From the NCBI GenBank assembly GCA_003281065.1, contig QCDA01000003.1, forward strand, positions 19,772-83,771: a stretch of DNA of 64,000 nt, in the 5' to 3' direction. The position numbers were made by a program, and so were the translations under genes. The notes under the pieces were generated by a model that saw only the letters and a list, made by a program, of their open reading frames with translations, did no database searches and had not been told where the DNA came from. The stretch is from Pelagibacteraceae bacterium AG-349-E10 (lineage in GTDB: Bacteria > Pseudomonadota > Alphaproteobacteria > HIMB59). This document shows, one piece after another, positions 16,674 through 60,261 of the stretch (positions are counted from its first letter, which is position 1; the number at the start of each line of letters is the position of its first letter).

Positions 16674-16751
16674 GGGGGTGTAGTTCAGTTTGGTTAGAAC
16701 GCCTGCCTGTCACGCAGGAGGTCGCGGGTTCGAGTCCCGTCGCTCCCGCCA
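16674..16751 (+). tRNA. tRNA-Asp(GTC); integration target
   Basis: GGGGGTG/CGCTCCC acceptor stem, CCTGC-CTGTCAC-GCAGG anticodon arm, CCA end. Confidence 0.96.
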
Positions 16752-16950
16752 CAATAAGATAATCTTGGGTTATATATTTCCTAACTTTTTCAATACTTAT
16801 CTGTTCAACAAAAATTAATTGAATCAATAAACCATGTCGTCTAATTCCATAAAATTTCTTTCTAGTGGTGAACATATGGTGAGCAAAACCCCCCATGTAC
16901 TTTTAGACAATAACAATGGTAGTGATTTCAATGCAGAACAGATTTCCTTA
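16707..16950 (+). repeat. Left copy of 244-bp imperfect direct repeat (attL core plus element arm)
   Basis: Aligns without gaps to 22514-22757 at a constant offset of 5807. Confidence 0.93.
16867..16886 (+). promoter_or_regulatory. Putative integrase arm-type sites (tandem pair)
   Basis: GGTGAACATATGGTGAGCAA matches GGTGAACACTTGGTGAGCAA at 22434-22453 on the other arm. Confidence 0.65.
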
Positions 16951-16986
16951 TGGAATTTGATCCCTAAATCAAAGGATATTTTTCCA
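16951..16986. promoter_or_regulatory. 36-bp dyad operator-like site upstream of the integrase
   Basis: TGGAA-N4-ATCCC-N8-AGGAT-N4-TTCCA; second copy at 19339-19374. Confidence 0.65.
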
Positions 16987-17037
16987 ATTCATAAGATGTT
17001 GAATCCAATTAGTAACCATACGAAAGGATACAACACA

Positions 17038-18297
17038 ATGACTAAGATAAGATTTAATAAAACTAATATTGAAAGCCTTAAACCTAAGGAAAAAAGATAC
17101 AGAGTTTATTCTGATGAAGTTAAAGGTTTATATGTGGAAGTATTAACCTCTGGTCGTAAAGCGTTCAGAGTTTTGTACAAGGTCAACTATATAAGCTATA
17201 CCCACCAATTAGGGGTGTACCCCGTTATGACTCCGACCTATGCAGTCAAACGAGCTATGGAAGTTTTAACTTCTGTTTCTAAAGGAAACAATCCACAGTT
17301 AGACAAAATTAAGAAAAGAGAAGAACTTACTTTCAAAGAATATTTTATTGAAAGGTTTTTACCTCTTCAGTTAGATAGGCGTTTCAGTAAAGAAGAGTTT
17401 ACTATTAATGATGAAGGTAGGATTAAATGGCGTAAAGGCGTTCAGAAAAAGATCTATAATCTTACTGACGGATACAATGCTCACTTCAGGTTCGCTAAGT
17501 TTATCAATAAAAAAGTATCTGATATTACTGAAGAAGATGTAATTATTTTCTCTAAACAGATTACTAAAAGCCATATCCACAATAGATTAATGAAAGAACT
17601 TAGTAGGTTTTTCAATACTACTTCATTGAATATTAATCCTGTCAGAAGAGCGTTAGCTACTGATATTCAGTTAAGACCAACCAAAGCAAGAACAGTTAAA
17701 GCTAAACCTGAAGAAGTTAAGGCTATTGGTAAGGCATTAGAACTAATCAAAAGTGGCTATATGCAAGACAATGGCTTCTATTACCAACCACAACCACAAC
17801 AAGTAAACATTATAAAAATTCTTTTATTTGAAGGGTTAAGACCTAATGAAGTTTACAAAATGGAGTGGTCAATGGTCAATGAGTCGGGGGTATATGACAC
17901 CGATACTAAAACGGGTGAGAAAACTATTCCATTAACTAAACAATCTTTGAATATTCTTTCTACTATTGAAAAGAAATCAAAGTTTGTCTTTCCGTCGCCC
18001 ACGAACAACGATCAACACATCAAGAGCATTAGAAAGATATGGACTAAGGTCTTAGAACTATCTGGAGTTAATCCTGAACTAAGAATTTATGATTTAAGAA
18101 ATACTTTCAGTTCAAAAGCCTCAATGATGTTTGGAACTTGGGTATCATCTAAGTTAACTAATCACACAAACTCTAGAACAGTTGAGAAGCATTATTCTGA
18201 TTTAGATAGTGGGGAAAGAGTATCTAGAAAGAATGAAGTAGCAGAAACATTTGAAAACCTTTTGCAAGGTGGGGGGAAGGTTGTCCAGATCAAATAA
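17038..18297 (+). CDS. Tyrosine integrase with N-terminal arm-binding domain (P4-like architecture)
   Basis: GLYVEV..SG.K.F...Y arm domain; catalytic R (GLRPNE), K (TKTG), YDLR (HxxR variant), LTNH and Y (KHYS); start set at ATG 17038 after an AAAGGA SD. Confidence 0.92.
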   Translation: MTKIRFNKTNIESLKPKEKRYRVYSDEVKGLYVEVLTSGRKAFRVLYKVNYISYTHQLGVYPVMTPTYAVKRAMEVLTSVSKGNNPQLDKIKKREELTFKEYFIERFLPLQLDRRFSKEEFTINDEGRIKWRKGVQKKIYNLTDGYNAHFRFAKFINKKVSDITEEDVIIFSKQITKSHIHNRLMKELSRFFNTTSLNINPVRRALATDIQLRPTKARTVKAKPEEVKAIGKALELIKSGYMQDNGFYYQPQPQQVNIIKILLFEGLRPNEVYKMEWSMVNESGVYDTDTKTGEKTIPLTKQSLNILSTIEKKSKFVFPSPTNNDQHIKSIRKIWTKVLELSGVNPELRIYDLRNTFSSKASMMFGTWVSSKLTNHTNSRTVEKHYSDLDSGERVSRKNEVAETFENLLQGGGKVVQIK

Positions 18298-19348
18298 GTA
18301 TTTACATAAATTATTTGAGGAACATTGGAATAAAAACCAAATAAATCCCAAGGATTTTAAGCCTAGGAAAGACGGAAGCGTTAAACCTACGACTTACATC
18401 ATGAATGGTCAGTTGACTATTAACTATGGTCAAATGAGAAACTCCCACAAAGAAGTTACGATAAGACAAATCAAAAAATACAACATCAAATCAGCTTCAG
18501 AACTAATTGCTAAAGCTAGTGAAGGTATTCCTGAACATGTTCCAAAGGTTGGTATGAACCTAACAAAGAAACAAGAAAAGGAATATTTTAGATTGCAAGG
18601 TGTTGACGAAGCAGAAAACGAATTAGGTATTGCTAATACTTTGCAAGAGAGTGAGTGGAAACTCTATAAGTCTTTGCTTCCATTATATACCAAGGGTATG
18701 AACTATGTCGTTTACCAAATTAGGGTGTATGGGGTAAATAAAAAAAACCAATCTAAGTTTGATAAACTCTATAAAGATGTTGTGTCTTTCTTTCTATTGA
18801 TTGAAGGTCATCACAGAAGATACTTCAAAGAAGATCTTGATAAACTATCCAATGAATACCTAAGAGCTAAAACACATTTAGCAAAAGCAATAGAAGTTAT
18901 AGAAGATGATAAGTCTAAGAGTGCTGTTTATAGCATGAAATACGGAGTGGGTAGAGGTCGTATCTTTTCTATTAGAGTTATCGCTGAATTGTACAGACAG
19001 ATAGCGGTTATGGAAAAGTTAGTTAAACTGAATGATGAAGAGAAAACAATTAAATCCAGAGTTCCTAATGAAACAGAGGATCTACAATATTTTTATTATC
19101 TTTGTTGGGAAATGTATAAGTTGGTTGATGACAGTAAGTTCAAAACACCTAAATACAATAACCAAAAACTATTTGCACAGTTCGTGTATCATATTCAAAG
19201 CAGATTTACTTCTGTTGGTACGCTAAATAAAACATCAGAGTCTATTAGAAAGAAGCCAAAGTTTAAGAAGATGAAATTTCTAAACTTACAATCAATTAAA
19301 ACAGAAGTTACCTACAATAAAATATTCAAACAATTGTTTGGAAACTAA
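18281..19348 (+). CDS. Hypothetical protein (~355 aa) overlapping the integrase end
   Basis: Long ORF; probable TTG start at 18281 after a G-rich SD (track start 18251); no recognisable motif. Confidence 0.75.
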   Translation: MSRSNKYLHKLFEEHWNKNQINPKDFKPRKDGSVKPTTYIMNGQLTINYGQMRNSHKEVTIRQIKKYNIKSASELIAKASEGIPEHVPKVGMNLTKKQEKEYFRLQGVDEAENELGIANTLQESEWKLYKSLLPLYTKGMNYVVYQIRVYGVNKKNQSKFDKLYKDVVSFFLLIEGHHRRYFKEDLDKLSNEYLRAKTHLAKAIEVIEDDKSKSAVYSMKYGVGRGRIFSIRVIAELYRQIAVMEKLVKLNDEEKTIKSRVPNETEDLQYFYYLCWEMYKLVDDSKFKTPKYNNQKLFAQFVYHIQSRFTSVGTLNKTSESIRKKPKFKKMKFLNLQSIKTEVTYNKIFKQLFGN

Positions 19349-19374
19349 TCCTGAACTCATAGGATATTTTTCCA
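19339..19374. promoter_or_regulatory. Second 36-bp dyad operator-like site, upstream of HTH-primase-helicase genes
   Basis: TGGAA-N4-ATCCT-N8-AGGAT-N4-TTCCA. Confidence 0.65.
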
Positions 19375-19399
19375 TTTCTAGTTATTCCATATTATCTGT

Positions 19400-19633
19400 A
19401 TGGAAACACAAACCACACAAAGCGAAACATCAGAGTTACTAACTACTGATCAAGTAGCAAATCTCTATAAACAATTTTCAGCTAATGCTCTACGCATACA
19501 GCGTTATAGAGGTGAGTCGCCTTTTCCCTACATCAAGCTAGGAAAGAAGGTTTTTTACAACAAAGCAGACATAGAAAGAGTATTGAACAATCACACAGTT
19601 GACGAGTATGAAACCTATACTGATCAACGCTGA
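19400..19633 (+). CDS. Small HTH protein, AlpA/excisionase-like
   Basis: LLTTDQVA...L...R..G..P.PYIKLGKKVFY...DI pattern typical of HTH_17/excisionase proteins. Confidence 0.8.
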   Translation: METQTTQSETSELLTTDQVANLYKQFSANALRIQRYRGESPFPYIKLGKKVFYNKADIERVLNNHTVDEYETYTDQR

Positions 19634-20480
19634 ACGCTTCGTTTCAATGTATTTTCCTGACCATAAGATCAAGGAAAACGCCAAAGAAATCAGAATAGGG
19701 AACAAAGGTTCTAAGGTTGTTATGAAAGACGGATCGGGGTTCTTTGACCACGAAGAAGGAAACTTTACTTCCATGTTCAATGAAATCATGAGAAGAGAAA
19801 ACTTTTCTTATCCTGACGCATGTAAGTATTGCAAAGATAACAACTTATTTATTTCTGATCATGCTTTTAGATATCATAAAAAACCAATAGAAACTTTTAA
19901 GAGAGAAATCTTTGAAAAGAGTTTAATTCCTTTTGGGTTTACTAATGGTCATGAGTATCTGAAGAGAAGAGGTATTATTGATAGTGCCTACCCAGAGAAT
20001 ACATTGTATTGGAACGACGCAGAAAATTATCTTTGCCATAAGATTGTAGATATAAACCTACATACTATTGGTTATCAAAGGATATGGGTTAGTTCTGATT
20101 TCAAGAAGCTACCACCACCAAAGATCTATGGAACTTCTAAAGGTGGTAAGACTGTTATCAATATTCACGATTACGAAACAATTATTCTAGTTGAAGGACT
20201 AGAGGACGGACTGACACTTCACCAATCATACTTACTAAACAATGTTAAAAGAACTGTTTGGGTAATGACAGGAACATCTAATTTTCTAAATGTAGAAATA
20301 CCTGAAAGCACTAAGAGAGTTGTTATTGCTTTAGATAATGATGAAGCTGGTGAGAAGATGTTTGAAAAATGTAAAGAGCGTTTCAGTAATCTCAACAAAG
20401 CAGTATCCAGACTTCGACCAAAGCCTGAATACAAAGATTTTAATGATGAATTAAGAGGTATTAAATTTAATGCAAACTAA
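19608..20480 (+). CDS. TOPRIM-domain primase
   Basis: YL..RGI, LVEGLEDGLT, IALDND.AG and KDFND motifs. Confidence 0.85.
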   Translation: MKPILINAERFVSMYFPDHKIKENAKEIRIGNKGSKVVMKDGSGFFDHEEGNFTSMFNEIMRRENFSYPDACKYCKDNNLFISDHAFRYHKKPIETFKREIFEKSLIPFGFTNGHEYLKRRGIIDSAYPENTLYWNDAENYLCHKIVDINLHTIGYQRIWVSSDFKKLPPPKIYGTSKGGKTVINIHDYETIILVEGLEDGLTLHQSYLLNNVKRTVWVMTGTSNFLNVEIPESTKRVVIALDNDEAGEKMFEKCKERFSNLNKAVSRLRPKPEYKDFNDELRGIKFNAN

Positions 20481-21597
20481 CGGAAAAGCAATAGATCTTC
20501 CAACGGAAGAGATAGTAATTAAACAGAAAACATTCCCAAGTTGTACACTTGGTGAATTAGCAGTTATGGATATTCCAAAACGAAAAGCGATCATTGATCC
20601 GTTGATCATGGAAGGTTCTTCAATGGAAATAAATGGTGGAACAGGAATAGGTAAGACTTGGTTTACTCTTGAAATGTTATGTTCAATTGCAACGGGTGAA
20701 AAGTTTTTAGGAAAGTATGAAATAACTAATCCCAGACCTGTCTTATACATTGACGGGGAAATGCCTTTCGACTCGATTAGAGATAGAGTTACTATGATAA
20801 TGGCTAGGTATATTTATAAATACCAAGTTTCTAAAATACCCATTCATTTCAGTAATCCTTTTCTCTTTGAAAACAATTTTATCCCTAAGATTAACGATAC
20901 AAAGATCACTCAAACACTAATCAAAGACCAGATAAAACGCATATCAGACATACATAGTAGCCCGATATTTGTATGTTTTGATAACTTATCGTGCCTTACA
21001 GACTACAAAGAAAACGATAATGATGATTGGACTTCAATGTTGGATATGTACACATTCTTAAAACATGAAGGTCATTCAATCTGTCATGTACACCATGTTG
21101 GTAAGGGTGGTCAGCAACGAGGAGCTAGTAGAAAACACGACGCTCTAGATACTGTGATACACCTTAAAAGACCAGAAGAGTATGACGCTTCTGAAGGAGC
21201 TGTATTCAATGTTAGGTTTGATAAGCATAGACACTTCGCGGGTGAGTACGCTAGAAGTTTTAAATGTGCTATCAAAGTTGATGATAACAACAAAGTTTCT
21301 TGGGATATATCAGACTATAAAGATGTAGCCTCTGAAGAATTATTGACTGCTTATTGTGAAGGACTCCCTGATATTACTTACACCAAACTAGAGGAAGAGT
21401 TTGGAATATCTAAGAGTACTATTGGAAGGACAATCAAACAATGTGTTAAGAATGGACTCTACAAAATTAAAATGGAAGAGATCTATGGAGACGAATGGTT
21501 GAACTACGATAAGTTGATTAACAAACAAACAAAGAAGGGAGTAGCACTATCAAATACAAAAGAACAAACAGAAACAACACAGGAAATGCCATTTTGA
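20470..21597 (+). CDS. RepA-like AAA (AAA_25/SF4-like) replicative helicase with C-terminal HTH
   Basis: GGTGIGKT Walker A, VLYIDGEM, FDNLS, HH..K....RGAS; C-terminal LEEEFGISKSTIGR HTH-like segment. Confidence 0.85.
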   Translation: MQTNGKAIDLPTEEIVIKQKTFPSCTLGELAVMDIPKRKAIIDPLIMEGSSMEINGGTGIGKTWFTLEMLCSIATGEKFLGKYEITNPRPVLYIDGEMPFDSIRDRVTMIMARYIYKYQVSKIPIHFSNPFLFENNFIPKINDTKITQTLIKDQIKRISDIHSSPIFVCFDNLSCLTDYKENDNDDWTSMLDMYTFLKHEGHSICHVHHVGKGGQQRGASRKHDALDTVIHLKRPEEYDASEGAVFNVRFDKHRHFAGEYARSFKCAIKVDDNNKVSWDISDYKDVASEELLTAYCEGLPDITYTKLEEEFGISKSTIGRTIKQCVKNGLYKIKMEEIYGDEWLNYDKLINKQTKKGVALSNTKEQTETTQEMPF

Positions 21598-21599
21598 GA

Positions 21600-21639
21600 T
21601 TTCCCAATCCCATACCCTATAGCTTTGGGAAATGGGAAA
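21600..21639. other. Putative replication-origin palindrome
   Basis: TTTCCCA-ATCCCA...CTATAG...TGGGA-AA-TGGGAAA immediately after the helicase stop; no U-tract on either strand. Confidence 0.5.
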
Positions 21640-21737
21640 AGCCAAAGAAGGTTATCTGTATTGCTTCAGAAATTAGAAAGTCACTTGAAGAGAGTGATGA
21701 AAGAGAACTACATAAACTATTTTGGAAGAGAGCATAA

Positions 21738-21923
21738 ATGGATCGTTACTTATCGGACTATGAAAAACTACTTCTTGAATACGAAAGGATTGAGTCAAAA
21801 CTTAATAGCCTTTTTATTCAGACTGATCTATCAGAGTCAGCTAGAAAGAAGTTAGAAATAAGTTTGAAGAGAAGATTAAAAACACTACTACCTGAACTAA
21901 GAAAAAAAGAAACAGAAGTTTAA
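21738..21923 (+). CDS. Small hypothetical protein (61 aa, coiled-coil-like)
   Basis: ATG preceded by purine-rich GGAAGAGAG; charged helical sequence. Confidence 0.55.
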   Translation: MDRYLSDYEKLLLEYERIESKLNSLFIQTDLSESARKKLEISLKRRLKTLLPELRKKETEV

Positions 21924-22433
21924 TATCGTTTCTAGTTCATTCGTGTCGTTACTTAAATTCTTCCAAATTTGATGAATTTAATGCGAAATTAATCGAAATA
22001 CTTCTCTATACAAATAAAATACTCTCTCTAAGAGGGGGTTATTAGGGTTATTTTGTTAATGTTTTCAATTGTTGATACGGAGTTCTTAGTAGTTTTTCCG
22101 TATTTCTCGCATGGAACTCTCGTAGGTAATGTAACCTTTTGTTACCCTGAAATGTTTACTTTTGTTAACTTTAAAAGCTACGCATAGGGGGGGTTCAAAA
22201 TTACTAGAAGGTACACTTTAATACATGTTTAACACGCATTTTTGAATCGTAGGGTACGAAGTAAATGCTACCCCCGTAACAAGTTAACATGAGGCTAACA
22301 CCATGCTCTATGATTCCTAAAACAGCGTTTCGCGGTGCATGATCCATGGTCAAATATCAATGGATATTCTGTTCACCAATATTGGAATATTTGAATCATT
22401 ATTTCGTAAAATGTGGTAGTGTTTCACTAGAAA

Positions 22434-22453
22434 GGTGAACACTTGGTGAGCAA
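22434..22453 (+). promoter_or_regulatory. Putative integrase arm-type sites on the right arm
   Basis: GGTGAACACTTGGTGAGCAA; inverted copy TGTTCACCA at 22370-22378. Confidence 0.65.
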
Positions 22454-22513
22454 CTCTTATGGGTGTTTAAAAAGGCTTGGTAATATAGGCTTAAAACAAC
22501 CTAGGATTCCTTA

Positions 22514-22757
22514 CTGTCACGCAGGAGGTCGCGGGTTCGAGTCCCGTCGCTCCCGCCACTTTTATAAGGGAGTGGGTTATATTTTTCCTAACTTTTTCAA
22601 TAGTTATCTGTTCAACAAAAAAACATTGAATCAATAAACCATGTCGTCTAATTCCATAAAATTTCATTATGTGGGTGAACGAGGGGTGAACGAGAACCCC
22701 CATGTACATTTAGACAATAACAATGGAAGTGATTTCAATGCAGAACAGATTTCCTTA
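22514..22757 (+). repeat. Right copy of 244-bp direct repeat (tRNA-Asp 3' half plus left arm of a second element)
   Basis: Starts at the anticodon loop CTGTCAC; 46 bp identical to the tRNA end, then a diverged copy of 16753-16950. Confidence 0.93.
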
Positions 22758-22870
22758 ACTTCTCTGGGAGAGAGCGTAAATAGATCGTTACATATCAAAC
22801 TACGAGAAACTTCTTAATGAATAAAAATAATAATCATTTTTAAGTCAATTAATGATTATTTTATCAAAAT

Positions 22871-25800
22871 TCATTTCTTTGTATCATGATTATTTTTTTT
22901 ATTGAAAAATATGAGCGGGCCTTCCCATTTTTCTTTATAAACTGAATGTGGATTGGCGGGAAAACCATTTAAATTACCTTTCTTATAGTTCAATGACCAT
23001 TCATTTAAAGATTTTATATTTAATTTATGAGCTAGTTTCTTAGCCTTATCATAGGAGAATTTTTTTTTATCAATAAAATATGTTTTTTTTCTGTTTAAAA
23101 ATTTATCAATTCCATCATATTCCTCATAATAATTTAAATTAGTCGGATATCCATTAAGAAGACCTTTTTTGTATAATCTTTCCCAATGTCTAGAAGATGT
23201 AATTTTGAGTTTTTTAGCAATTTTTTTGGCTTGGCCATATGAAAAAATAATCTTAGAGTTTTTATATCTTATTCCTAAATAGTCTTCCCAACTCACCCAA
23301 CCTTTATTTTTGTATGCAATATCAGCTCCACTAGGTAGTTTGGTGTGGATTATTTTAAGATTTTTTTTATTTTGATATGAAGATCTTGTTTTAAATCCAT
23401 GTTTTTGTACAAGTTTTTTTGCCTTTGCAAATGGAAGCCATCTATCATCTGATAATAACAATTGTGATTTTTTCCCTAAAAAGTCTACCCAACCTTTCCA
23501 CCCATTATCTTTATAAATACGTTGTGGAGATGATGGTAAATTCTTAATTATACCCTTTTCAATTAATTCTTTATATTCTGTGTTAGATCTAATTTTGAAC
23601 TTTGAAATAATTTTTTTTGCCTTTTCAAAGGGCATTTTTTTAATATCAAACTTATACAACTTTTTTGTTCCAAGGAAATCTGACCAGCTAGTCCACTCAC
23701 TATAGTGTTTATCTGGTCTCAAGATAAAATTGGATGGCAACTTTCGCTCAGTATATAGCTTGAACCACTCGTGTGATGAATTTATTTTCTGCTTTTGGGC
23801 GTAATTTGAGAGAATTTTATAGGGAGTTTTGATTTTTTCTTCATGTGGAATCCTGCCAAAAAAATTATCTGAGTTAATCCAACCTTTATTTTTGTAAGTT
23901 ATAAATGGATATATTGGTATTGGATTTAAAGATGTCGAGTTATGTTGAGCATATTTTTTCCATTCATCTAAGCTATTAATATTATTCTCATAAGCTAACT
24001 TTTTAGCATCCAAATACGAAAGCTTTGTATTTTTGGTATACTTTATATTCAAAAACACATCCCATCCCTCCCACTCAGAATAAATTCTATCTGGAGTTCT
24101 TGGTAAATCTTTAGGTAGTTGATTATTCATAAATTTCATAGAATATTCATCTGCAGACTTTAATTTTATGGATTGAATAAATTTTTTAGCTAGTTCATAT
24201 GATCTCCAGTTTCCAAAAGCTACCCTATCCCAAATTTTAAGATTAATAGCATTTTCAAATTTCTTGTGATCAACATCTTTGAGTTTTTTTATTTTTATCA
24301 ATCCATCAATGGGAGAACCGCCCCTAGGAATATTGCCAGTTTCAAGCATTCTTAAATGATCAATTATTCTGCTATCTTGAGCCGCTAAAGCTTTTAAAGT
24401 AATTATTATTTCTCTAAAAGAATTATCCTTTTCAATTTGTTGAATATCTGAATTTTTAGGAATTATTATTGGAAGTAGTATGTATCCATATTTTTTTCCT
24501 TTTGATAGCCTCAACGCTCTTCCCGCTGCTTGAACAATATCTACTCTACTTTGTTTAGGGTCAGTGAAAACAACGCAATCAATTGCGGGTAAATCAACAC
24601 CTTCAGTTAAGCACCTAGCATTTGTCATAATACCTTTATGATTAGCAAATTCTCTCATTTGGAAAGTTCTTTTATTTGTTGGCATTTCACCAGAAACATG
24701 AAAGGTATTTAATTTTCCTAAATTTTCATCAAGTTCATTTATAATCATTTGTTGAACACTGAAACTCTCGGCTCTTTTGATTGATCTATGAAATGATATT
24801 GCATTTTTAATACTTAGTTTTTTGATAGCTTTTCTCAAAGCTAGAGCAGTTGCAAATTCTCTTGCAGTAATATTTTTTAGTTTATCCTTTATTTTTATGT
24901 ATTTGTTTTTTTGATATAGCTCATCTATTTCTGCTTCTTCAATATTAAAAGTTATAACTTTGTAATCAGAGATGATGGGTGGTTTCATTTCGATAGCTTC
25001 TTTAAAACTAAGAAAATAAATTATTTTTCCATAAATTCTTTCATCATCCATAGAAAAATAATCATCTTTATCGCCTCTAAAAACTCTTTCAGTAGCAGTC
25101 ATGAAAACTCTTTTTTTAATTCTAATATTCTTTTCATCTAGCAGATGAGCCATAAACTTTTCTTTTTGACCAACGGTTTTATGAGCTTCATCCATTATTC
25201 CCAGATCATAGCTATGGCCTTTTGAACCTAAAGAAGTAACCATTCCACTTTGATATGTTGTGAAAATAATTTTTGGGTTTTTACTTCTTTTTTTTAAAAA
25301 ACCTCTAATTTCATTACTGTCAGTTGTTACTCTAATTCCTATATCTGAGACATTTGTAATAAAATCATCTTGGTCTTTACTAACAGTTTTATCACTGCAA
25401 ACACAGAGCCATTCAGGCTTTACTCCATTAGCAAAATATTCTCTTGTCCATACTTTCAATGTTTGCTGAAGTAATGCTAAACTAGGTACTGCTACTAAAA
25501 TTGATTTAGATTTTAGCTCTTTAGATATCCAAAAAGCAGTCAAGCTTTTGCCTGTACCACAAGGCATAATGATCTTACCTCTATCGTTATTTAAAAAAAA
25601 TTTTGATGTTTCTTTTATTGCCTTTATTTGATGTTTTTTGGGCTTGAGAGGAGTAAATTTAAGATTTTTGTTATTGATTTTTGATAAAAGGTTTTTCCAA
25701 CCCTCATAATTATCATCATCTAATTTGAGAAAAGTTTCTAAAGTTTCGAAACCAACTTTGTCAATATATTTTACTTTTTTAGGTGGTTTTTGAACTGTGG

Positions 25801-26194
25801 TAAATACAATTCCGTGTTCAATATTTTTGCAATAATTAAAACTTAAGTCTGTAAAACTAGTTAAATCATTTCGTGTTAAGTTAGTATTATCTCCAGATCT
25901 ATATTTTGCTTGAATTGACCAAATTTTATCCTCACTAGTGATTGCAATTAAATCAATACCCTCATCTGAGATTGGCAAGTTTATTTTTAATCTTATCCGT
26001 TCCGGAACTTCATCTAAAAGATAAACTTCTTTTATTTTTGAAATATATTCAGGCGATGACTTAAGGTAATATTTAATAATATTTTCAAAAATATAACCTG
26101 CTTCTTTAGTTTTATTATTTCTAGTTAATTTTGATAAATTTAAGTCTATCTCCTTCCAAGATTTAGAGTTTTTTATGTAAGTATTTTCAATCAT
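22871..26194 (-). CDS. Mrr-like nuclease + SF2 (DEAH) helicase + seven C-terminal ~60-aa tandem repeats; candidate defence protein
   Basis: DEGIDL..IQAKY PD-(D/E)xK-type motif; MPCGTGKS, DEAH, MTAT, LTEGVDLP, QAAGRALR; repeats from about aa 663 (nt 24208) to the end. Confidence 0.85.
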   Translation of the reverse strand: MIENTYIKNSKSWKEIDLNLSKLTRNNKTKEAGYIFENIIKYYLKSSPEYISKIKEVYLLDEVPERIRLKINLPISDEGIDLIAITSEDKIWSIQAKYRSGDNTNLTRNDLTSFTDLSFNYCKNIEHGIVFTTVQKPPKKVKYIDKVGFETLETFLKLDDDNYEGWKNLLSKINNKNLKFTPLKPKKHQIKAIKETSKFFLNNDRGKIIMPCGTGKSLTAFWISKELKSKSILVAVPSLALLQQTLKVWTREYFANGVKPEWLCVCSDKTVSKDQDDFITNVSDIGIRVTTDSNEIRGFLKKRSKNPKIIFTTYQSGMVTSLGSKGHSYDLGIMDEAHKTVGQKEKFMAHLLDEKNIRIKKRVFMTATERVFRGDKDDYFSMDDERIYGKIIYFLSFKEAIEMKPPIISDYKVITFNIEEAEIDELYQKNKYIKIKDKLKNITAREFATALALRKAIKKLSIKNAISFHRSIKRAESFSVQQMIINELDENLGKLNTFHVSGEMPTNKRTFQMREFANHKGIMTNARCLTEGVDLPAIDCVVFTDPKQSRVDIVQAAGRALRLSKGKKYGYILLPIIIPKNSDIQQIEKDNSFREIIITLKALAAQDSRIIDHLRMLETGNIPRGGSPIDGLIKIKKLKDVDHKKFENAINLKIWDRVAFGNWRSYELAKKFIQSIKLKSADEYSMKFMNNQLPKDLPRTPDRIYSEWEGWDVFLNIKYTKNTKLSYLDAKKLAYENNINSLDEWKKYAQHNSTSLNPIPIYPFITYKNKGWINSDNFFGRIPHEEKIKTPYKILSNYAQKQKINSSHEWFKLYTERKLPSNFILRPDKHYSEWTSWSDFLGTKKLYKFDIKKMPFEKAKKIISKFKIRSNTEYKELIEKGIIKNLPSSPQRIYKDNGWKGWVDFLGKKSQLLLSDDRWLPFAKAKKLVQKHGFKTRSSYQNKKNLKIIHTKLPSGADIAYKNKGWVSWEDYLGIRYKNSKIIFSYGQAKKIAKKLKITSSRHWERLYKKGLLNGYPTNLNYYEEYDGIDKFLNRKKTYFIDKKKFSYDKAKKLAHKLNIKSLNEWSLNYKKGNLNGFPANPHSVYKEKWEGPLIFFNKKNNHDTKK

Positions 26195-26485
26195 GAATCA
26201 GATGGTTCTTCCTTCCAAATACACCTCAATTTATCTAATATTTCAAAAAATTCATGAGATGTATTAAATTATATTTGTAAAATTGAACTAAATTTAAACT
26301 AAGAATATTATCCTTTTATTAATTAGGTTATTTATAAAATAATATTAACAGAATTCCTTACTCATATAGCAAATCCACACATAAAATTGTAATATTTGTG
26401 TGTATAGTAAATGCGTCACTTTTATCGTCACTAAATACTTATTGTTTCTTATAATGTATTGCGTTACGGAAAATCAAAATTTTTA

Positions 26486-26845
26486 ATGTATAACCTAGAT
26501 TATATTTTCATAATGATATTCATCGTTATTGGAGCTGGAATGGCAATTGCTATGTATTTGCTCTCCAAAATATTATCACCTAGTTCCCCTGATGCTGAAA
26601 AACTATCAGCATATGAATGTGGTTTCGAGGCCTTTGATGATGCTCGATCAAAATTTGACGTTAAGTTTTATTTAGTATCAATACTATTTATTATATTTGA
26701 TTTAGAGATTGCGTTTTTATTTCCTTGGGCCGTGAGTCTTAGCAACATTGGTGCTCTGGGTTTTTATTCAATGATGTTTTTTTTATTTATCCTCACAGTA
26801 GGATTTATATATGAATGGAAAAATGGAGCACTAGATTGGGAGTAA
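26486..26845 (+). CDS. nuoA: NADH-quinone oxidoreductase subunit A
   Basis: YECGF, FDLE..FLFPW, EW..GALDW; start set at ATG 26486. Confidence 0.95.
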
Positions 26846-51349: not shown

Positions 51350-52060
51350 ATGTATAAAAATATCATGCTAAAGATTTCAGGAGAGTCTTTAGCAGGATCG
51401 AATGAACAAGGCTTTGATTTTGATATTTTGAATGATCTTTCTAATAGTATAAAAAGACTTTTATCTAAAAATCTTAAAATTTCCATCGTAATAGGAGGTG
51501 GTAATTTTATTAGGGGCTCTTCTTTTTCAAATGGCGTAGTAGACAGAGTCACCTCAGATTATATGGGTATGTTAGGTACAGTAATAAACTCTTTGGCTTT
51601 ACAATCAAACCTTAAAAAAATTGGAATTGAGTCGAGAGTTATGACTGCAATAAGTATAAATAGAGTTGCTGAGCCGTACATTAAAAACAAAGCCTCTAAT
51701 CACCTTGACAAAAATCGAGTTGTTATTTTTGCATCTGGCACAGGCAATCCTTTTTTTTCAACAGATACAGCTGCAGTTCTCAGAGCTTCAGAAATGAAGT
51801 CTGATGTTATATTTAAAGGTACAAAAGTAGATGGTATTTACGATAAAGATCCTGTCAGTAATAAAGATGCAAAAAAAATATCAGAAATCTCATATTCAGA
51901 GTATTTAAACAAGGAAATTAAGGTCATGGATGCTACAGCAATTAGTTTAGCTAAAGATAGTTCTTTACCAATAATAATTTTTTCAATTTCAAAAAGTTCA
52001 AATATAATTGATATAATTGAGGGAAAAGGTTCCTATTCAATTATAAAAGAAACTGAATAA
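51350..52060 (+). CDS. pyrH: UMP kinase
   Basis: LKISGE, GGGNF.RG, D.MGM.GT..N, GNPFFSTD; start set at ATG 51350. Confidence 0.96.
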   Translation: MYKNIMLKISGESLAGSNEQGFDFDILNDLSNSIKRLLSKNLKISIVIGGGNFIRGSSFSNGVVDRVTSDYMGMLGTVINSLALQSNLKKIGIESRVMTAISINRVAEPYIKNKASNHLDKNRVVIFASGTGNPFFSTDTAAVLRASEMKSDVIFKGTKVDGIYDKDPVSNKDAKKISEISYSEYLNKEIKVMDATAISLAKDSSLPIIIFSISKSSNIIDIIEGKGSYSIIKETE

Positions 52061-52611
52061 TGTTTAATAAGGAAAATTGCTTTTCAGAAATGCAGTCAAG
52101 TATAAATGCATTTTCTATCGAATTAAAAAATATTAGAACTGGTAGAGTTTCCCCTGATATTCTTAAAACAATAGTTGTTGATAGTTATGGGTCAAAGACT
52201 CCTTTAACTCAACTATCAAATATAAATAATTTAGACAACATGACTTTAAATGTTAATGTTTGGGATTCATCACTTGTAAAAGCTATAGAAAAATCCATTT
52301 TAGACTCAAATCTTGGAGTTACCCCACAAACAGATGGATCTAATTTGCTATTAAAATTTCCTGAGTTAAGCGCGGAAAGAAGAAAAGAGTTGGTAAAAAT
52401 CATTTCAGAAATATCTGAAAAGTTTAAAATCTCTATTAGAGGTATTAGAAGAAAATTTCTTGATGAAATAAAAAATTTAGAAAAAAATAAATCAATTTCT
52501 ATAGACGAAAGTAAAAAATTTCATGATGAAATTCAAAAGATAACTGACTCTTCAATAAGTGAAATTGAAAATTTAACTAATTCTAAACAATCTGAAATCT
52601 TAAAAGTTTAA
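52060..52611 (+). CDS. frr: Ribosome recycling factor
   Basis: IRTGR, YG...PL, P.LS.ERRKELVK, IQK.TD. Confidence 0.95.
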   Translation: MFNKENCFSEMQSSINAFSIELKNIRTGRVSPDILKTIVVDSYGSKTPLTQLSNINNLDNMTLNVNVWDSSLVKAIEKSILDSNLGVTPQTDGSNLLLKFPELSAERRKELVKIISEISEKFKISIRGIRRKFLDEIKNLEKNKSISIDESKKFHDEIQKITDSSISEIENLTNSKQSEILKV

Positions 52612-52613
52612 TT

Positions 52614-53291
52614 TTGACAAATAAATTAAATCACGTTGCATTTATTATGGATGGGAATAATAGATGGTCCAAAAAAAATAAAACTAACAAGTATGATGGT
52701 TATAAAAAGGGCGCTAATACAATTATTAAATTGTCCAATTATATTTTTAACAATACTCACGCAAAATACGTATCTGCTTTTGCTTTATCTAAAAATAATT
52801 TAAGCAGATCTAGTAACTTAATATTAACTCTTAAGAAAATTCTTTTAGAATTTCTAAACAAAGTCATTGAAGATGAAATATCATTTCAATTTAATATAAG
52901 ATTTATTGGTAATAGAAATTTTTTGAGCGGTGAGATAAAGAAAAAAATTAATCAATTAGAAAAGCAAAAAAAAAATAATAAGAAAACTTTATTAATTTAT
53001 ATCAATTATAGTGGTAAGAATGATATTGAGCAGGCAGCTCTTAAATATCATCAAAATTTTAAAAATAGTAATATTAATAAATTAAATAATTATCTTTTGA
53101 CTTCTGGCATACCAGATCCAGATATACTTATAAGAACTGGTGGTTTTAATAGATTAAGTGATTTTTTAATATACCAGTCGTCATTCACAGAATTATTTTT
53201 TTTAAAAAAATTATGGCCAGATTTAAATAAAAATGATGTATCAAAAATTTTTGCAAAATATAATTTATTAGAGAGAAAATTTGGTCTCTAG
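52614..53291 (+). CDS. uppS: Undecaprenyl diphosphate synthase (divergent)
   Basis: HVAFIMDGNNRW, S..N..R, PDILIRTGG..RLS.F..YQ, LWPD, R.FG. Confidence 0.88.
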   Translation: MTNKLNHVAFIMDGNNRWSKKNKTNKYDGYKKGANTIIKLSNYIFNNTHAKYVSAFALSKNNLSRSSNLILTLKKILLEFLNKVIEDEISFQFNIRFIGNRNFLSGEIKKKINQLEKQKKNNKKTLLIYINYSGKNDIEQAALKYHQNFKNSNINKLNNYLLTSGIPDPDILIRTGGFNRLSDFLIYQSSFTELFFLKKLWPDLNKNDVSKIFAKYNLLERKFGL

Positions 53292-53997
53292 TTATATAAG
53301 TAGATTAGTTATAGGTTTAATTATAATAGCAGTAGTTTTATTTTTTTTTCTGACTAATCTTGATCTTTTATTTCTATTTTTATTGTTAACTCTAATAAGT
53401 TATGAATTTTTATATTTAAAAATTATAAACAAATTTATTTTATTTCTTTTTATTTTTTTAACTACAATATCTATTTTATTTGTTCCCTATGAATTATTTG
53501 AGAATATATTCATTTTACAGTTAATATGCTTATTTTGTATTTTTCTTTTTGGAAGATACAAAAAAGAGTTATTTGTCATCTCAATTTATTTTTTTTCTAT
53601 AATTCTTTTTTATTTAATTAACATAGATAGAAATTTTTTTTATCTATTATTTTTGATTTCATTTCTCAATGATACAATAGCTTATATATTTGGTAAATCT
53701 TTGCGTGGCCCTCTTATTATACCAAAAATTAGTCCTAACAAAACATGGTCTGGTACATCTATATCCTTTTTTTCCACTACTTTACTCTTAATTTTAATGA
53801 ATTTTAATATTCTCATATCCATGCTTGTTTCTATTTTATTATTTATTGGGGATATTTTCTTTTCTTACATTAAAAGATCTCTAAATATTAAAGACTTTTC
53901 ACCACTATTAGGTAGTCATGGAGGTATCCTTGATCGGTTGGATAGTATTTTTTTAATTTCTATATTTTTTCATATTAATTTATTTTATTTAGCGTGA
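53281..53997 (+). CDS. cdsA: Phosphatidate cytidylyltransferase
   Basis: DT.AY.FG, ISPNKTW.G, KR...IKD...LGSHGGILDRLDS. Confidence 0.92.
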   Translation: MVSSYISRLVIGLIIIAVVLFFFLTNLDLLFLFLLLTLISYEFLYLKIINKFILFLFIFLTTISILFVPYELFENIFILQLICLFCIFLFGRYKKELFVISIYFFSIILFYLINIDRNFFYLLFLISFLNDTIAYIFGKSLRGPLIIPKISPNKTWSGTSISFFSTTLLLILMNFNILISMLVSILLFIGDIFFSYIKRSLNIKDFSPLLGSHGGILDRLDSIFLISIFFHINLFYLA

Positions 53998-55085
53998 GTA
54001 TTAAGATAGTTATAGTTGGCTCTACTGGTAAACTTGGTACCATGCTTTTAAATTATACTTATAAAAATTCAATAAAAATTTATGGTATCACTTGCTACAA
54101 AAATAATAAAAAATTAGAAAATCAAAAAAAAAGATACAATATTAATAAATCATATGTCTTAAGTGATATTGATGATAGAAAAAATTTTTTTAATTTACTT
54201 GAAAAAAAAATAAATATTATATATTTCTTAGATTTTGGTAGTTATTCACTTACTTATATAAATCATTTTCTTAAATTTAATAAAAGATCAATCATCGCTG
54301 TCGCGAATAAAGAGATAATTATTGCTGGTGGCCATTTACTTCAACTTAAAATTAAAAAAACTAAAAATATTTTTATACCATTGGATTCCGAACATTTTTC
54401 TTTATTAAATTCAAATATAAATAAAGATAATGTAAGAAAAATATTTATTACAGCTTCTGGTGGCCCATTTTATTTTAATAAAAAAATAAATCTAAATAAC
54501 GTAAATTCTAAATTAGTATTATCCCACCCTAAGTGGAAGATGGGCAAAAATAACTTAATTGACTCATCAAATTTTGTTAATAAAATTTTAGAGATTTATG
54601 AACTTTCCTACATTTATAATATCCCTTTAAATAAAATTGATTTTCTTGTCTCCAGGGAGGCCTATATTCATAGTATTATTCATTACAATGATAATACTTT
54701 ATCATTTAATTGTTTTTTAAATGATATGATCATAACATTATCAAAACCTTTAAGTTTTTTTTATGAAATTAAACCAATGACAATGAATCAGAACTATTTT
54801 CATAATTATAATTTAAATATCGAAAAACCAATCGATAAAAGATTTTCAATATTTAATTACCGAAAACAATTATTCAAATTAAATCATTCTGAGCAAATAA
54901 GATTAATGATAATAAATAATTTCGCACATAAACTTTATTTATCTAACAAACTCCAATATAGTAATATAGTTAAATATATAATGAGTGAAATAAAAAGAAA
55001 TTCAATGACTGTAAATTTGAATACATTTAATTCAATTTTACGTTTTATATCTTCACTGAATAAAAAATACAAAACAAATGTTTAA
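53994..55085 (+). CDS. dxr: 1-deoxy-D-xylulose 5-phosphate reductoisomerase, strongly divergent
   Basis: GSTG, ANKE, P.DSEH, TASGGPF, HP.W.MG, NK..E..E; synteny after cdsA. Confidence 0.8.
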   Translation: MSIKIVIVGSTGKLGTMLLNYTYKNSIKIYGITCYKNNKKLENQKKRYNINKSYVLSDIDDRKNFFNLLEKKINIIYFLDFGSYSLTYINHFLKFNKRSIIAVANKEIIIAGGHLLQLKIKKTKNIFIPLDSEHFSLLNSNINKDNVRKIFITASGGPFYFNKKINLNNVNSKLVLSHPKWKMGKNNLIDSSNFVNKILEIYELSYIYNIPLNKIDFLVSREAYIHSIIHYNDNTLSFNCFLNDMIITLSKPLSFFYEIKPMTMNQNYFHNYNLNIEKPIDKRFSIFNYRKQLFKLNHSEQIRLMIINNFAHKLYLSNKLQYSNIVKYIMSEIKRNSMTVNLNTFNSILRFISSLNKKYKTNV

Positions 55086-57309
55086 AAATTTTTTTCTAGT
55101 AATTTTTTTTTATTTTATATCACAGAATTTATTTTCAAAGTCTGTTATTTTTGAGGGTTTATCCAAATTTTCTGTAGATGATATACAATCCATTACTTCT
55201 TTAGACATCTTTAGCGAAAATTTAGAAACTAATGATATTAATAAAATAATAAAAGAATTATCTTCATCTGATTTAATTTATGAGATTTCTTACAAGGAGA
55301 TTGATAATTTTTTTACTTTAACAATTAATGAAGCTGATATTATAGAAAATATATATATTAATAATAATGTTTGGGTCAGAGATGACTTAATTATTCAAAA
55401 TTTACTATCAAAAAATAATAGTTTTTTGACTAAAAATAATATTCAAAAAGATATTAAAATTTTAAAAAATATTTATAAATCAAAAGGCTTTAGAGATGTA
55501 TCTATAATCGCTAAAGTTGAAAAATATTCACTGGATAGAGTGAATCTTATATATGAGGTTGAAGAAAATAAACAACAAAAAATCAATATTATTAAATTTA
55601 TTGGTAATAACTTTTTTTCAAATAATTATTTAAATTCAAAAATTAACTCTCAAAGTATTAAATTTTATAATCTTTTTAAATCAGGAAGTAATTTGAATTT
55701 TTCAACTTTTGAATTTGATAAAAATAAAATAATTTCTCTTTATAGAGACGAGGGTTTTGTCGATGTAAAAGTTTCATATATACTTGAAAAGTCATCTTTA
55801 AATAACAACATACTTTATTTTTATATAAAAGAAGGCAAAAGGATTAAAATTCAAAATGTTGATTTTAAATATAAAGATGATGCAGCAGAAATATTAAATA
55901 AAATTTCATCAGAATTTACTAAAAAACTAAAAAATAATAATAACTATTATAGTAAGTCATTAATTGATGAATATCTTGATTTGTATAATACAAATTTGGT
56001 CTCAAATAATATTCATAACATATATATTGATAGCTTTGTCAATGACAACGATCAAGATTTAGATCTTACTTTCGAGACAATTAAAAAAGACCCAATAGTT
56101 ATAAATAAAATCAATATTAGTGGTAACTCAATAACAAAAAATCAAACAATCAGATCAAAATTATCTATAGAACCAGGAGAATATTTTAATAATTTTCTTT
56201 TGGAAAAATCTATAAAAAATCTCAAAAGGTATCCTTATATAAAAGATATAAACACGTCTACAAAGATAGATAGCCAGCTTGTCGATATAACTATAGATGT
56301 AGATGAAGAAACTAAAACTGGTAATATTCTTTTAGCTGGAACTTTTAATGCTGATACTGGAGCAGGTGTAAACTTTGGAATAGAGGATAAAAATATTTTT
56401 GGGTCTGGAAATAGTATAAATTCAAATTTTTCAGTTAATTCTGAGGATCTTAAATTTTCTTTAAATTTTAAACAGTATCCAATTTTAAATCCGGACCTCA
56501 CTAATACTTATACTATTTTCAATCAAGATAATGACTATACGGGTTCATTTGGCTATAAAGCATCAACAAGAGGAATAGGTTATAATATAAACTTCAAGCA
56601 AAATGAAAAATTAAGTTATGGTGCTGGTCTTAGTTATCAAGCTTTTAAAGGGCACTCTGCAATAAACAATACATCAACCTCTATCAATGACAATATTGGA
56701 AATTTTGATAATTATAAATTAAATCTTTCTGCCAAATATGACACTACAAATAATTATTTTTATCCTACTAATGGCCAATTAAATAAAATTAACTTTACTT
56801 TATCTCCAGAGAATATTTCAGATAATGCCTTTTATAAAGTTTCTATAACAAATAATAATTATCTTAAACTACCAAAATCCGAAAATTATATATTTTTAAA
56901 TAATAATTATGGTTATGCTGAGTCTTTGAATTCAAAATTAAAAACTATAGATGCATTTGGTCTTGGGGGATTAAATTTTAAAGGTTTTGATTACAAAGGA
57001 ATTGGTCCGTACGACGGTAATGTTTATTTAGGTGGTAACGAATATTTTACATCAACTATTGGATATGGTAGCTCATTTATTTTTGATGAAAAAGACAATA
57101 TAAATATAAAGTTTTTTCTCACAACAGGTTCTATTTGGAATAGCGACTATACAAACTCTTCAGATATAGATTTAAGAGCTTCATTAGGAACCTCTCTAGA
57201 TTTTATTACACCAATAGGGCCTTTATCATTCTCTTATGCTGAACCATTTGAGAAAAATAATTCTGATAAAACTAGATCTTTTAATTTTTCTATTGGCACT
57301 TCATTTTGA
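55078..57309 (+). CDS. bamA: Outer membrane protein assembly factor BamA
   Basis: POTRA-like repeats, FKGF (VRGF-equivalent), TPIGPL..SYA and terminal F. Confidence 0.9.
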   Translation: MFKNFFLVIFFYFISQNLFSKSVIFEGLSKFSVDDIQSITSLDIFSENLETNDINKIIKELSSSDLIYEISYKEIDNFFTLTINEADIIENIYINNNVWVRDDLIIQNLLSKNNSFLTKNNIQKDIKILKNIYKSKGFRDVSIIAKVEKYSLDRVNLIYEVEENKQQKINIIKFIGNNFFSNNYLNSKINSQSIKFYNLFKSGSNLNFSTFEFDKNKIISLYRDEGFVDVKVSYILEKSSLNNNILYFYIKEGKRIKIQNVDFKYKDDAAEILNKISSEFTKKLKNNNNYYSKSLIDEYLDLYNTNLVSNNIHNIYIDSFVNDNDQDLDLTFETIKKDPIVINKINISGNSITKNQTIRSKLSIEPGEYFNNFLLEKSIKNLKRYPYIKDINTSTKIDSQLVDITIDVDEETKTGNILLAGTFNADTGAGVNFGIEDKNIFGSGNSINSNFSVNSEDLKFSLNFKQYPILNPDLTNTYTIFNQDNDYTGSFGYKASTRGIGYNINFKQNEKLSYGAGLSYQAFKGHSAINNTSTSINDNIGNFDNYKLNLSAKYDTTNNYFYPTNGQLNKINFTLSPENISDNAFYKVSITNNNYLKLPKSENYIFLNNNYGYAESLNSKLKTIDAFGLGGLNFKGFDYKGIGPYDGNVYLGGNEYFTSTIGYGSSFIFDEKDNINIKFFLTTGSIWNSDYTNSSDIDLRASLGTSLDFITPIGPLSFSYAEPFEKNNSDKTRSFNFSIGTSF

Positions 57310-57320
57310 AAATTTAAATA

Positions 57321-58295
57321 ATGAATTTTATTAGATCAAATTTTTTTCCATATAAAAATAAATATGATTTGAAAAAATTGGCTGAATTATTAAAAAATGA
57401 GATCTTATATATTGAGTATTTAAAAAATTTTGAAATTAAAGACATTTCTTCCTTATCTAGTCTTAGAGATAATTCTCTTTTATTTTTGGAAACTAATTTA
57501 AAAATATCGCAAATTAACAAAAAAAATATTCATATCATTTCAAATATTGAAGAGAATAAAAATTATTATAAAAATGTTACAATTATTAAAAATTTAAATT
57601 ATTGTTACAACTTAATCTGTAATGAATTATTCTTTCATGAAGACCAATTAGGTTTTTTAGATGACTATGAATACTTAAATGGCTCTTTTATTTCAAAATT
57701 TTCAAAAATTAATAAATCTGCCGAAATTGGTAAAAATTGTATAATTTCTAGAGGTGTAGAAATTGGAAAAAATACAATTATAAAAAATAATGTTGTCATA
57801 AAAAACTCTTTACTTGGAAATAATATTATTGTCTGTGATAACACATCTATTGGCACTTCAGGTTTCGGTTTTGATTATAAAAAAAGAGGATCTTTACATT
57901 TAAACCCACAATTAGGAATAACAATTATTGATGATAATGTTCACATTGGCGCTTCTTGTACCATTGATAGGGGAAAAATAGACATCACATATATCGGTAA
58001 AAATTCAATGATTGATAATATGGTGCATATAGCTCATAACGTTATTATTGGTAAAAATGCATGTATAGCAGCACAAACAGGTATATCTGGAAGCGTTAAA
58101 ATAGGAGATAATGTTACTATTGGAGGGCAAGTAGGATTTGCAGGGCATATATCAATTGGTGAAAATGTAGTTGTTGCTGCTAAAAGTGGCGTTACAAAAA
58201 ATATAAAAGATAATTCAGTAGTTGCTGGTTTTCCTGCAATTGATATGAAAGAATGGAAAAAGGCTTTAATTAGGCAGAGAAAATATGGACATTAA
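57321..58295 (+). CDS. lpxD: UDP-3-O-acylglucosamine N-acyltransferase
   Basis: GFGF, IGA..TIDRG, IDN.VHIAHNV hexapeptide repeats. Confidence 0.92.
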
Positions 58296-58731
58296 TGAAA
58301 TTCAAAAAATATTACCTCATAGGTATCCTTTTCTACTTATTGATAAAATTATTGAATTTGAACCAGATATTTCTGCACATGCAATTAAATGTGTGACAAT
58401 TAATGAACCTTTTTTTCAAGGTCATTTTCCAGGAAGACCACTTATGCCTGGTGTTTTGGTTATTGAAGCAATAGTTCAGGCTGCATGTTTTACAGTTGCA
58501 ATGAAGCTCAAAGACTCAATGAAAAACCCTGGTGTTTCATTTATGACCATTGATAAATGTAAATTTAGAAAACCTATAGTACCTGGTGATGTTTTAAATT
58601 TAAAGGTTAATCGCTTAAATAAAGTTAAAAATGTTTACAAATTTGAAGGCAAATGCCTTGTAAATGATGTTATACATGCACAATGTATATTTTCAGCGAT
58701 GATACATGACGTCCCTGATTCATCCAAGTAG
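58285..58731 (+). CDS. fabZ: 3-hydroxyacyl-ACP dehydratase
   Basis: [27 protein letters not shown]. Confidence 0.96.
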
Positions 58732-60260: not shown

Positions 60261-60261
60261 G

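Follow-up and report, generated by a model that had tools for sequence, protein, structure and literature searches.

Restriction enzymes usually spare their host in one of two ways, either by methylation of their sites or by cutting modified DNA only. The Type ISP enzymes LlaBIII and LlaGI carry an Mrr nuclease and a superfamily 2 (SF2) ATPase in one chain, together with a methyltransferase and a target recognition domain (TRD). The ATPase of LlaBIII becomes active once the enzyme has bound its target, and the DNA is cut by a converging pair of enzymes (PMC7049714). The Mrr domain is not methyl-directed in LlaGI (PMC2790908), and SauUSI, a Type IV nuclease-helicase-SRA enzyme, combines nuclease, ATPase and C-terminal reader with no methylase at all (PMC12707154). 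Here we describe an open reading frame (ORF) from Pelagibacteraceae bacterium AG-349-E10 that has a nuclease-ATPase front half of the Type ISP kind and ends in seven tandem repeats. It lies at 22871..26194 on the minus strand of the window, the 64,000-nucleotide stretch of contig QCDA01000003.1 that was analysed and to which all coordinates refer, encodes 1107 amino acids (aa) and is present in one copy in its source genome. The architecture proved to be genuine, occurs widely and does not belong to Type ISP. We regard it as a methylase-free variant that apparently has no name yet, and its array of repeats has the behaviour of a fast-diversifying specificity module.

The protein starts with an Mrr-family PD-(D/E)XK nuclease (aa 1-170; 25685..26194, minus strand like every part of the gene), assigned by Pfam and by alignment with LlaBIII. 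It continues into an SF2 ATPase core of the Type ISP type with motifs I-VI (aa 183-620; 24335..25648), assigned by Pfam, motifs and alignment, and a linker of ~42 aa and near-constant length (24209..24334) leads from there to the first repeat. A sequence-only reading of this DNA had described a nuclease, a complete SF2 helicase and seven repeats from about residue 663, and all its motifs were located: DEGIDL at position 77, IQAKY at 94, MPCGTGKS at 210, DEAH at 335, TAT at 366, EGVDLP at 531 and QAAGR at 555. The Pfam matches above cut-off were Mrr_cat_2 (46-140), ResIII (183-368) and Helicase_C (452-563). Exactly seven units, scoring 23.7-58.1 bits, were recognised in the query by a profile built on 200 homologue repeats and none of the query's own: repeat 1 (aa 663-715; 24050..24208; 58.1 bits), repeat 2 (aa 725-780; 23855..24022; 35.2 bits), repeat 3 (aa 790-842; 23669..23827; 42.0 bits), repeat 4 (aa 854-907; 23474..23635; 55.2 bits), repeat 5 (aa 919-974; 23273..23440; 36.9 bits), repeat 6, the most degenerate (aa 984-1033; 23096..23245; 23.7 bits), and repeat 7 (aa 1046-1097; 22904..23059; 42.7 bits). 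After 500 shuffles of the tail, the top domain score with the same profile was 10.3. Plain self-BLAST gave no internal match in the tail, and the units are therefore divergent; their best identities within the protein were 32-46%. Repeat 3 was 59% identical to repeat 3 of the homologue P0004, with six of the seven variable columns discussed below being equal.

Among solved structures, LlaBIII and LlaGI (PDB 4xqk, 5ffj) were the nearest relatives, as the sequence-only reading had proposed for the N-terminal half. The alignment covered aa 19-622 (E 1e-56), and LlaBIII/LlaGI was also the best Foldseek match (E 4e-17), with similarity over the first 620-680 residues only. Residues E37, D77, D81, Q95 and K97 of the query nuclease align with E38, D74, D78, Q92 and K94 of LlaGI, whose roles are given in PMC2790908, and the motif V arginine is also common to both. 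These five residues and the ATPase motifs were invariant in 53 of 53 aligned sequences. In contrast to Type ISP enzymes, the query has no methyltransferase or TRD, its BLAST similarity stops at ~aa 609-628, and its family forms a separate tree branch. This tree was a quick, unrooted maximum-likelihood one built on 87 ATPase cores; one branch (SH-aLRT 98) united 51 of the 53 repeat-type rows and another (SH-aLRT 100) all six ISP enzymes, while HA-repeat forms sat on several branches and a clade with a different tail was placed elsewhere too. The nuclease-ATPase chassis is thus combined with several C-terminal readers. The phrase "in place of a methyltransferase", used in the sequence-only reading, is thus correct as a description of the architecture; it does not extend to the loss of a methylase, because the tree has no root.

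The repeats resemble INT_rpt (PF14882, the integrase repeat unit formerly called PHINT_rpt), in agreement with what had been noticed from the sequence. The match in the query is weak (18.3 bits, E 0.0028, under the Pfam cut-off of 26.5), the relatives L040, L062 and L106 pass the cut-off, and 28 of 30 Atlas feature hits for the tail of homologue P0007, which stands in for the query, carry PF14882. In PMC8078820, INT_rpt appears only in a modelling table; here it is joined to a nuclease-ATPase. Public annotations name the protein a generic helicase, and it shows weak similarity to RadD, XPB and Hef. No named system in PADLOC 2.0 covers this architecture: the only matches were to N-terminal parts of IIG/I REase-MTase models and, weakly, to the PbeA helicase. 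No NCBIfam model covers the whole architecture either. Searches of the open literature brought up no paper on a nuclease-ATPase-INT_rpt architecture; the screen of 100 repeat proteins in PMC11417379 may include INT_rpt proteins.

Mrr-helicases with HA repeats (PF03457) share with the query the chassis, a variable repeat tail and the absence of a methylase motif. HA repeats are described as DNA-binding, and sensors, HA domains included, are swapped among nucleases (PMC12191111). We tried to relate the HA and INT units to each other by hhalign; no homology was detected (probability 2.6%), and none appeared with a doubled profile. A congener (G003; L129:448-3483) encodes the HA-repeat version of the enzyme, so that both reader types occur in one genus. 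Mrr-helicase-HA proteins were also present in viral contigs (L089, L092, L097, L100-L102, L105, L119), some of them labelled as giant-virus metagenome-assembled genomes, and these proteins branch beside the repeat family with modest support (84); BFVD hits include helicases of Klosneuvirus and Bodo saltans virus.

Of 7990 candidates scored in a protein search, 2284 were hits. The top 120 of the 2284, in a score ranking that favours long arrays, had 4-10 repeats and belonged to the Pelagibacterales wherever a taxon was named. An alignment-based scan of genome contigs identified 80 genome loci, in SAR11, Verrucomicrobiota, Bacteroidota, Campylobacterota, Planctomycetota and others. A single intact nuclease-ATPase-repeat ORF was found at 57 of them, with 1-11 repeats (at least four in 55), including copies in cultured Pelagibacter strains (L002, L024); a further 13 were cut by the contig end and 10 were split or otherwise irregular. 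The repeats were in the helicase ORF at 75 of 80 metagenome loci. Read-derived DNA contigs (four runs, three studies) covered the query gene in pieces, with none spanning it, and the best of them may come from the source sample; no RNA data set was listed as holding the gene, and a promoter scan was at chance level (16 vs 22.5).

No fused or consistently linked methyltransferase emerged from motif, Pfam and profile scans of homologues and neighbours, as had been claimed for the locus. FxGxG, NPPY-type and DPxxGxG motifs were absent from the 1107-aa protein, and inspection of the ORFs at 10-40 kb of the window, with profile scans of five island proteins, did not turn up a DNA methyltransferase either. 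Methyltransferase motifs were absent from 127 target ORFs and from 80 of the metagenome set; the sole match among the 120 homologues falls within the repeats. Of the 148 nearest neighbours, a single one was a DNA methylase by Pfam, and the target next to it is cut off ahead of its tail; neighbour clustering found no conserved non-core neighbour. Methylase profiles matched only L017 and, weakly, L062 across L001-L088, where 3 kb on both sides was present at 43 of the 80 repeat-bearing loci, and matched at none of the 80 short metagenome loci. In L035 an N6-type methylase gene lies ~7 kb from the target. Adjacent methylases were detected at eight loci of the sister clade with a different tail, and the screen is therefore able to see methylases. 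No cognate methylase was thus found for the query family, which sets it apart from Type I, IIG and III systems with a separate methylase gene beside the nuclease and is in line with Type IV enzymes. The source genome holds one CcrM-like methylase (492 bits, below the NCBIfam cut-off) with other matches weak, and in a complete Pelagibacter chromosome whose copy is intact, with 8 repeats, PF01555 is matched once (357 aa) and PF00145 and PF02086 not at all. The idea that CcrM methylation marks self was discarded by inference, given that members of the family also occur in phyla beyond the Alphaproteobacteria.

The proposal that arrays shuffle on a conserved core was then borne out by pairs of near-identical cores and by the sharing of repeat blocks. 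Among 185 proteins there were 2117 pairs, which are not independent, with cores at least 88% identical. In the 456 pairs with cores 95-98% identical, the median array identity was 0.44 and repeat number differed in 76%; even with cores at least 98% identical, arrays were still unrelated in 5 of 12 pairs. In 23 protein pairs, drawn from 35 of 200 proteins, some repeats were shared at 80% identity or more and others were unrelated, the shared ones standing at shifted positions in 11 of the pairs. The scaffold was fixed over 1063 distinct repeats, in which conserved W/Y/F residues are abundant, and columns 19, 20, 23, 37, 38, 40 and 41 were among the most variable.

We compared the ratio of nonsynonymous to synonymous substitution rates (dN/dS) between these seven columns and eleven other variable columns. 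In 55 within-array duplicates it was 0.90 (0.70-1.15) at the seven columns vs 0.37 at the eleven, a ratio of 2.4 (confidence interval (CI) 1.8-3.3), and in 59 between-protein pairs 0.51 vs 0.41, a ratio of 1.24 (CI 0.83-1.68). Loci outside the column choice gave ratios of 2.8 (1.9-4.7) within and 1.43 (0.95-2.28) between. The excess at the fast columns is clear after duplication within an array and not clearly so between proteins. Core repeat columns were under strong purifying selection (dN/dS ~0.03). The commonest triplet at columns 19/20/23 occurred in only 12 of 815 repeats, covariation among the variable columns was weak, mean repeat identity within proteins was 0.42, and at least seven columns had high entropy; this is not the pattern of a TALE-like code of one repeat for one base. 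C2H2 zinc-finger arrays consist of tandem units with a fixed scaffold and few fast columns. STAR repeats, too, are tandem units with a fixed scaffold and few variable columns (PMC11417379), and the likeness of the array to C2H2, TALE and STAR proteins is a functional analogy, with homology not shown. Unlike them, the query repeats have no metal ligands or small code.

Several properties of the array bear on its ligand. All 200 proteins analysed had arrays with a net basic charge; that of the query array, at +0.108 per residue, was reached by 1.2% of 412 genome ORFs. At five of the seven variable columns R/Q/N/H amounted to 36% vs 17%, and K to 8% vs 34%. Among 44 shorter homologues the repeat was fused to GIY-YIG (P0159), LAGLIDADG (P0152) and DUF559 (P0140) domains, and in P0141 to a PHROG homing-endonuclease domain (E 5e-29). 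The repeat is also present in two jumbo-phage records; ORF338 of phage XacN1 (L157:2276-3205), a hypothetical protein, apparently has two repeat units and a C-terminal domain with no assignment. P0146 joins a eukaryote-like ribosomal L7/L30 N-terminus to four repeats and may be a gene-calling artefact. AlphaFold modelled the repeat as a unit of ~55 aa with two helices and two short helices, the units packing loosely (pLDDT 86.5, pTM 0.43). In this model, columns 19/20/23 are at the start of helix 2 and columns 37/38/40/41 precede the short third helix. Two viral hits at E <=0.001 were obtained for the repeat model; overall, the fold searches establish a known fold no more than a new one.

The gene is also frequently associated with integration sites. 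Of 30 genome loci showing a tRNA, 15 have the gene flanked by this tRNA on one side and by a partial duplicate of the tRNA (att) on the other, two of the duplicates matching over 21 nt only, and in 7 of the 15 the interval exceeds the gene by less than 700 bp. In L002, L084, L085, L087, L088 and the source window the gene is inside or beside satellite-like elements; restriction genes are reported to be carried by marine satellites (PMC9618062). Matches to PADLOC models, Gabija included, were found for 14 of 80 hand-picked neighbours at 9 of 45 loci, which is a descriptive count.

We hypothesize, with slightly better than even confidence, that the protein is a sequence-specific, methylase-free, ATP-dependent nuclease directed against phage or mobile DNA, and that the host is protected by absence of the target. 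Our model suggests that the repeat array takes the place of the methylase-TRD as the target reader. Each ~55-aa helical unit would touch a few base pairs through columns 19/20/23 and 37/38/40/41, in a many-residue, zinc-finger-like mode with no two-residue TALE code. An array of 4-11 units could then specify a site long enough to be absent from a genome of 1-1.5 Mb, and this long site, missing from the host's own genome, would spare the host in lieu of methylation. Binding of the array would turn on the ATPase, as in LlaBIII, and license the Mrr active site, so that invading phage or mobile DNA with the site gets cut. Duplication and recombination would supply new arrays, and any array that targets the host would be eliminated or inactivated.

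More tentatively, we propose that the family may represent an undescribed and widespread class of restriction enzymes in SAR11 and other streamlined marine bacteria, in which a recombining array of small DNA-reading modules encodes long targets with no methylase. If true, a population-wide library of specificities would be held in one 3-kb tRNA-linked cassette, and INT_rpt would add a programmable unit to the known DNA-binding modules. The reading of long sites by a shuffled protein array would then be a third self-sparing route, one that would suit the most streamlined cells of the ocean, in which few defence systems are recognised, with 50 occurrences in 46 of 321 genomes (PMC13712998). The natural arrays on near-identical cores number in the hundreds and could reveal the targets and the recognition code of INT_rpt.

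A number of observations weigh against this hypothesis. The motif III hairpin segment is 20 residues long in all six ISP enzymes, as against 12 in 49 of the 53 rows of the family and in 119 of 120 homologues, and a comparable hairpin deletion abolishes both translocation and cleavage by LlaBIII (PMC7049714). ISP cleavage moreover requires two head-to-head sites (PMC7049714), a requirement that fits poorly with one very long site. At the variable columns dN/dS does not exceed 1, leaving room for relaxed constraint on exposed positions, the dN/dS values are pairwise counts on related sequences, and these columns are among the least conserved across orthologous repeats. Foldseek returned no PDB hit for the repeat fold at E <=0.001, the best VIA Z being 4.8 with weak helix-turn-helix-like rows. 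Of the 15 att cases, seven are kin at one tRNA-Thr site (L007 and six), the att and defence-neighbour counts stand without a background control, and none of the 80 short metagenome loci, six of which had a tRNA, showed an att pair. Finally, the source genome is 68% complete, which leaves space for a distant methylase.

The hairpin bears directly on the term "translocating nuclease" of the sequence-only reading. The nuclease-ATPase front half was confirmed; translocation is doubtful, because the hairpin loop required by LlaBIII is eight residues shorter family-wide. Since the shortened hairpin resembles the deletion that inactivates LlaBIII, the enzyme seems at least as likely to nick or cut locally under ATP gating, or to move over short distances, as to translocate over a long range in the ISP manner. 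The full-length model was poor at aa 368-414 and 560-660 (mean pLDDT 69), and owing to this low confidence the hairpin and the linker were not judged from it.

An alternative, which we regard as unlikely, is a modification-dependent (Type IV-like) enzyme whose repeats bind a modified phage base, as the SRA domain of SauUSI does. The SauUSI precedent (PMC12707154) would explain the missing methylase, the sensor swapping among nucleases that includes HA domains (PMC12191111) fits such a reader, and the abundant conserved W/Y/F residues could serve it. SauUSI differs from the query in having a PLD nuclease and one SRA domain rather than Mrr and a variable array, and the query has no Pfam match to SRA or PUA. 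The other kinds of known modification reader, such as EVE, winged helix and iEndoIII, were likewise without a Pfam match, and the fold searches gave none that was clear. Duplication should leave a pocket for a modified base intact, but it is just after this event that the variable columns change most rapidly. The arrays on near-identical cores are mostly unrelated, a diversity that seems greater than known modifications would call for, homing-type nucleases carry the repeat too, and Mrr domains of this class are, as mentioned above, not methyl-directed in LlaGI. The sequence-only reading had left the ligand as DNA sequence, a modified base or a phage protein, and of these the pattern favours a combinatorially read DNA sequence over one modified base.

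Protein-binding immune repeats typically show hypervariable surface columns and block shuffling. The array would fit this description if it were a variable protein sensor like the leucine-rich-repeat and tetratricopeptide-repeat receptors, one in which binding of a phage protein unleashes non-specific DNA degradation and abortive infection. The 10 of 67 loci uncut by a contig end that lack a single intact ORF would also suit such a costly gene. We consider this somewhat less plausible than a modification reader: the units were modelled as separately confident beads (pLDDT and pTM as above) and not as a solenoid, a net basic charge is common to the arrays of the 200 proteins, and the identified fusion partners are DNA enzymes.

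It is comparably improbable that the protein is a selfish or satellite-serving nuclease, which cuts rival elements, helper-phage DNA or the empty insertion site and so spreads its own cassette, with little benefit to the cell. The repeat on homing-type nucleases, the satellite-like elements in or beside which the gene lies at several loci and the integrase-less att-flanked cassettes that it forms speak for this explanation. Against it, six copies at one SAR11 tRNA-Thr site have cores 88-96% identical and arrays only 35-44% identical, and the arrays of two alleles at the tRNA-Asp slot described below are 34% identical. Nucleases that recognise their insertion site would be expected to have similar arrays at one site; insertion-site recognition was rejected on this ground. 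Cutting of helper or rival elements would be the mechanism of the sequence-specific nuclease proposed above, with a different beneficiary. We consider it very improbable that the protein is a helicase-nuclease of repair or housekeeping whose repeats bind DNA non-specifically, or that it is a Type ISP relic in decay, despite the weak RadD, XPB and Hef similarity and the generic helicase label, given that 68 of 70 congeners, all 11 near-complete ones among them, gave no match and that the gene lies in variable slots, that the core repeat columns are under the strong purifying selection already noted, and that the family branches separately from the ISP enzymes.

In the window, a tRNA-Asp gene (16674..16751, plus strand) serves as integration site and anchors the variable slot, which is bounded by a divergent core gene, a nuoA-like ORF named from its translation (26459..26845, plus strand). 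The low-GC source genome (G000) has marine alphaproteobacteria as close relatives. We surveyed the slot in 20 congeners out of ~50 with a strong nuoA match; it measured from 68 bp to 4.3 kb, its content varied, and a homologue occupied it in one of the 20. In this congener (L023) the flanks are 86-99% identical to those of the query at the DNA level and the gene ~30-70%, the encoded protein having a core 51% and an array 34% identical. The core was matched in 2 of 70 congeners, one of them the HA-repeat form at another genome position.

The tRNA-Asp gene is followed by a 5.8-kb phage-satellite-like element (16752..22559, plus strand), which encodes a tyrosine integrase (16834-18297), an excisionase-like protein (19400-19633), a TOPRIM primase (19599-20480), an AAA_25 helicase (20470-21597) and a 365-aa ORF with no assigned function; no structural phage genes were seen among the six of its proteins that were scanned. 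An att repeat, an exact duplicate of the tRNA-Asp 3' part, closes the element (22514..22559, plus strand). The repeat-nuclease gene is located outside, with its stop ~310 bp from the element's end, a setting that the sequence-only reading had not noted. The remnant of a second, deleted element (22573..22823, plus strand) consists of a 185-nt left-end copy, 89% identical to 16766-16950, and 67 nt that are 79% identical to 21715-21781, behind the helicase gene. In the congeners L136 and L139 the same remnant junction is followed by a different, unrelated cargo gene, within a mini-element whose right end is complete, from which we infer that the repeat-nuclease gene may be cargo of a decayed element.

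The 5.8-kb element itself looks complete and has no evident cargo. Internally deleted versions, with ends 93-99% identical, are present in L135, L136 and L139; they hold a 475-aa secreted-looking protein and are possibly mobilised in trans. A near-perfect 23-bp inverted repeat (21592-21640), at the end of the AAA_25 gene, coincides with the mini-element junction. Further along the window, at 52000-62000, there are low-GC stretches of 20-23%.

Other members and relatives of the family differ in their tails. At L069:669-4862 a DUF4238 domain is fused after six repeats. P0121, P0122, P0124 and P0125 (438-577 aa, on contigs longer than the gene) have only 7-9 repeats and are either stand-alone arrays or split tails, and L106, L110 and L111 are viral helicases on a long branch with 4-7 INT-type repeats and no nuclease domain. 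The loci with the other tail, in viral contigs (L103, L113-L116, L118, L122, L125), encode a C-terminal part of ~300 aa with no Pfam match that is winged-helix-like by eye; methylase genes, mostly two, are adjacent, and the arrangement looks like a restriction-modification type with separate methylases.

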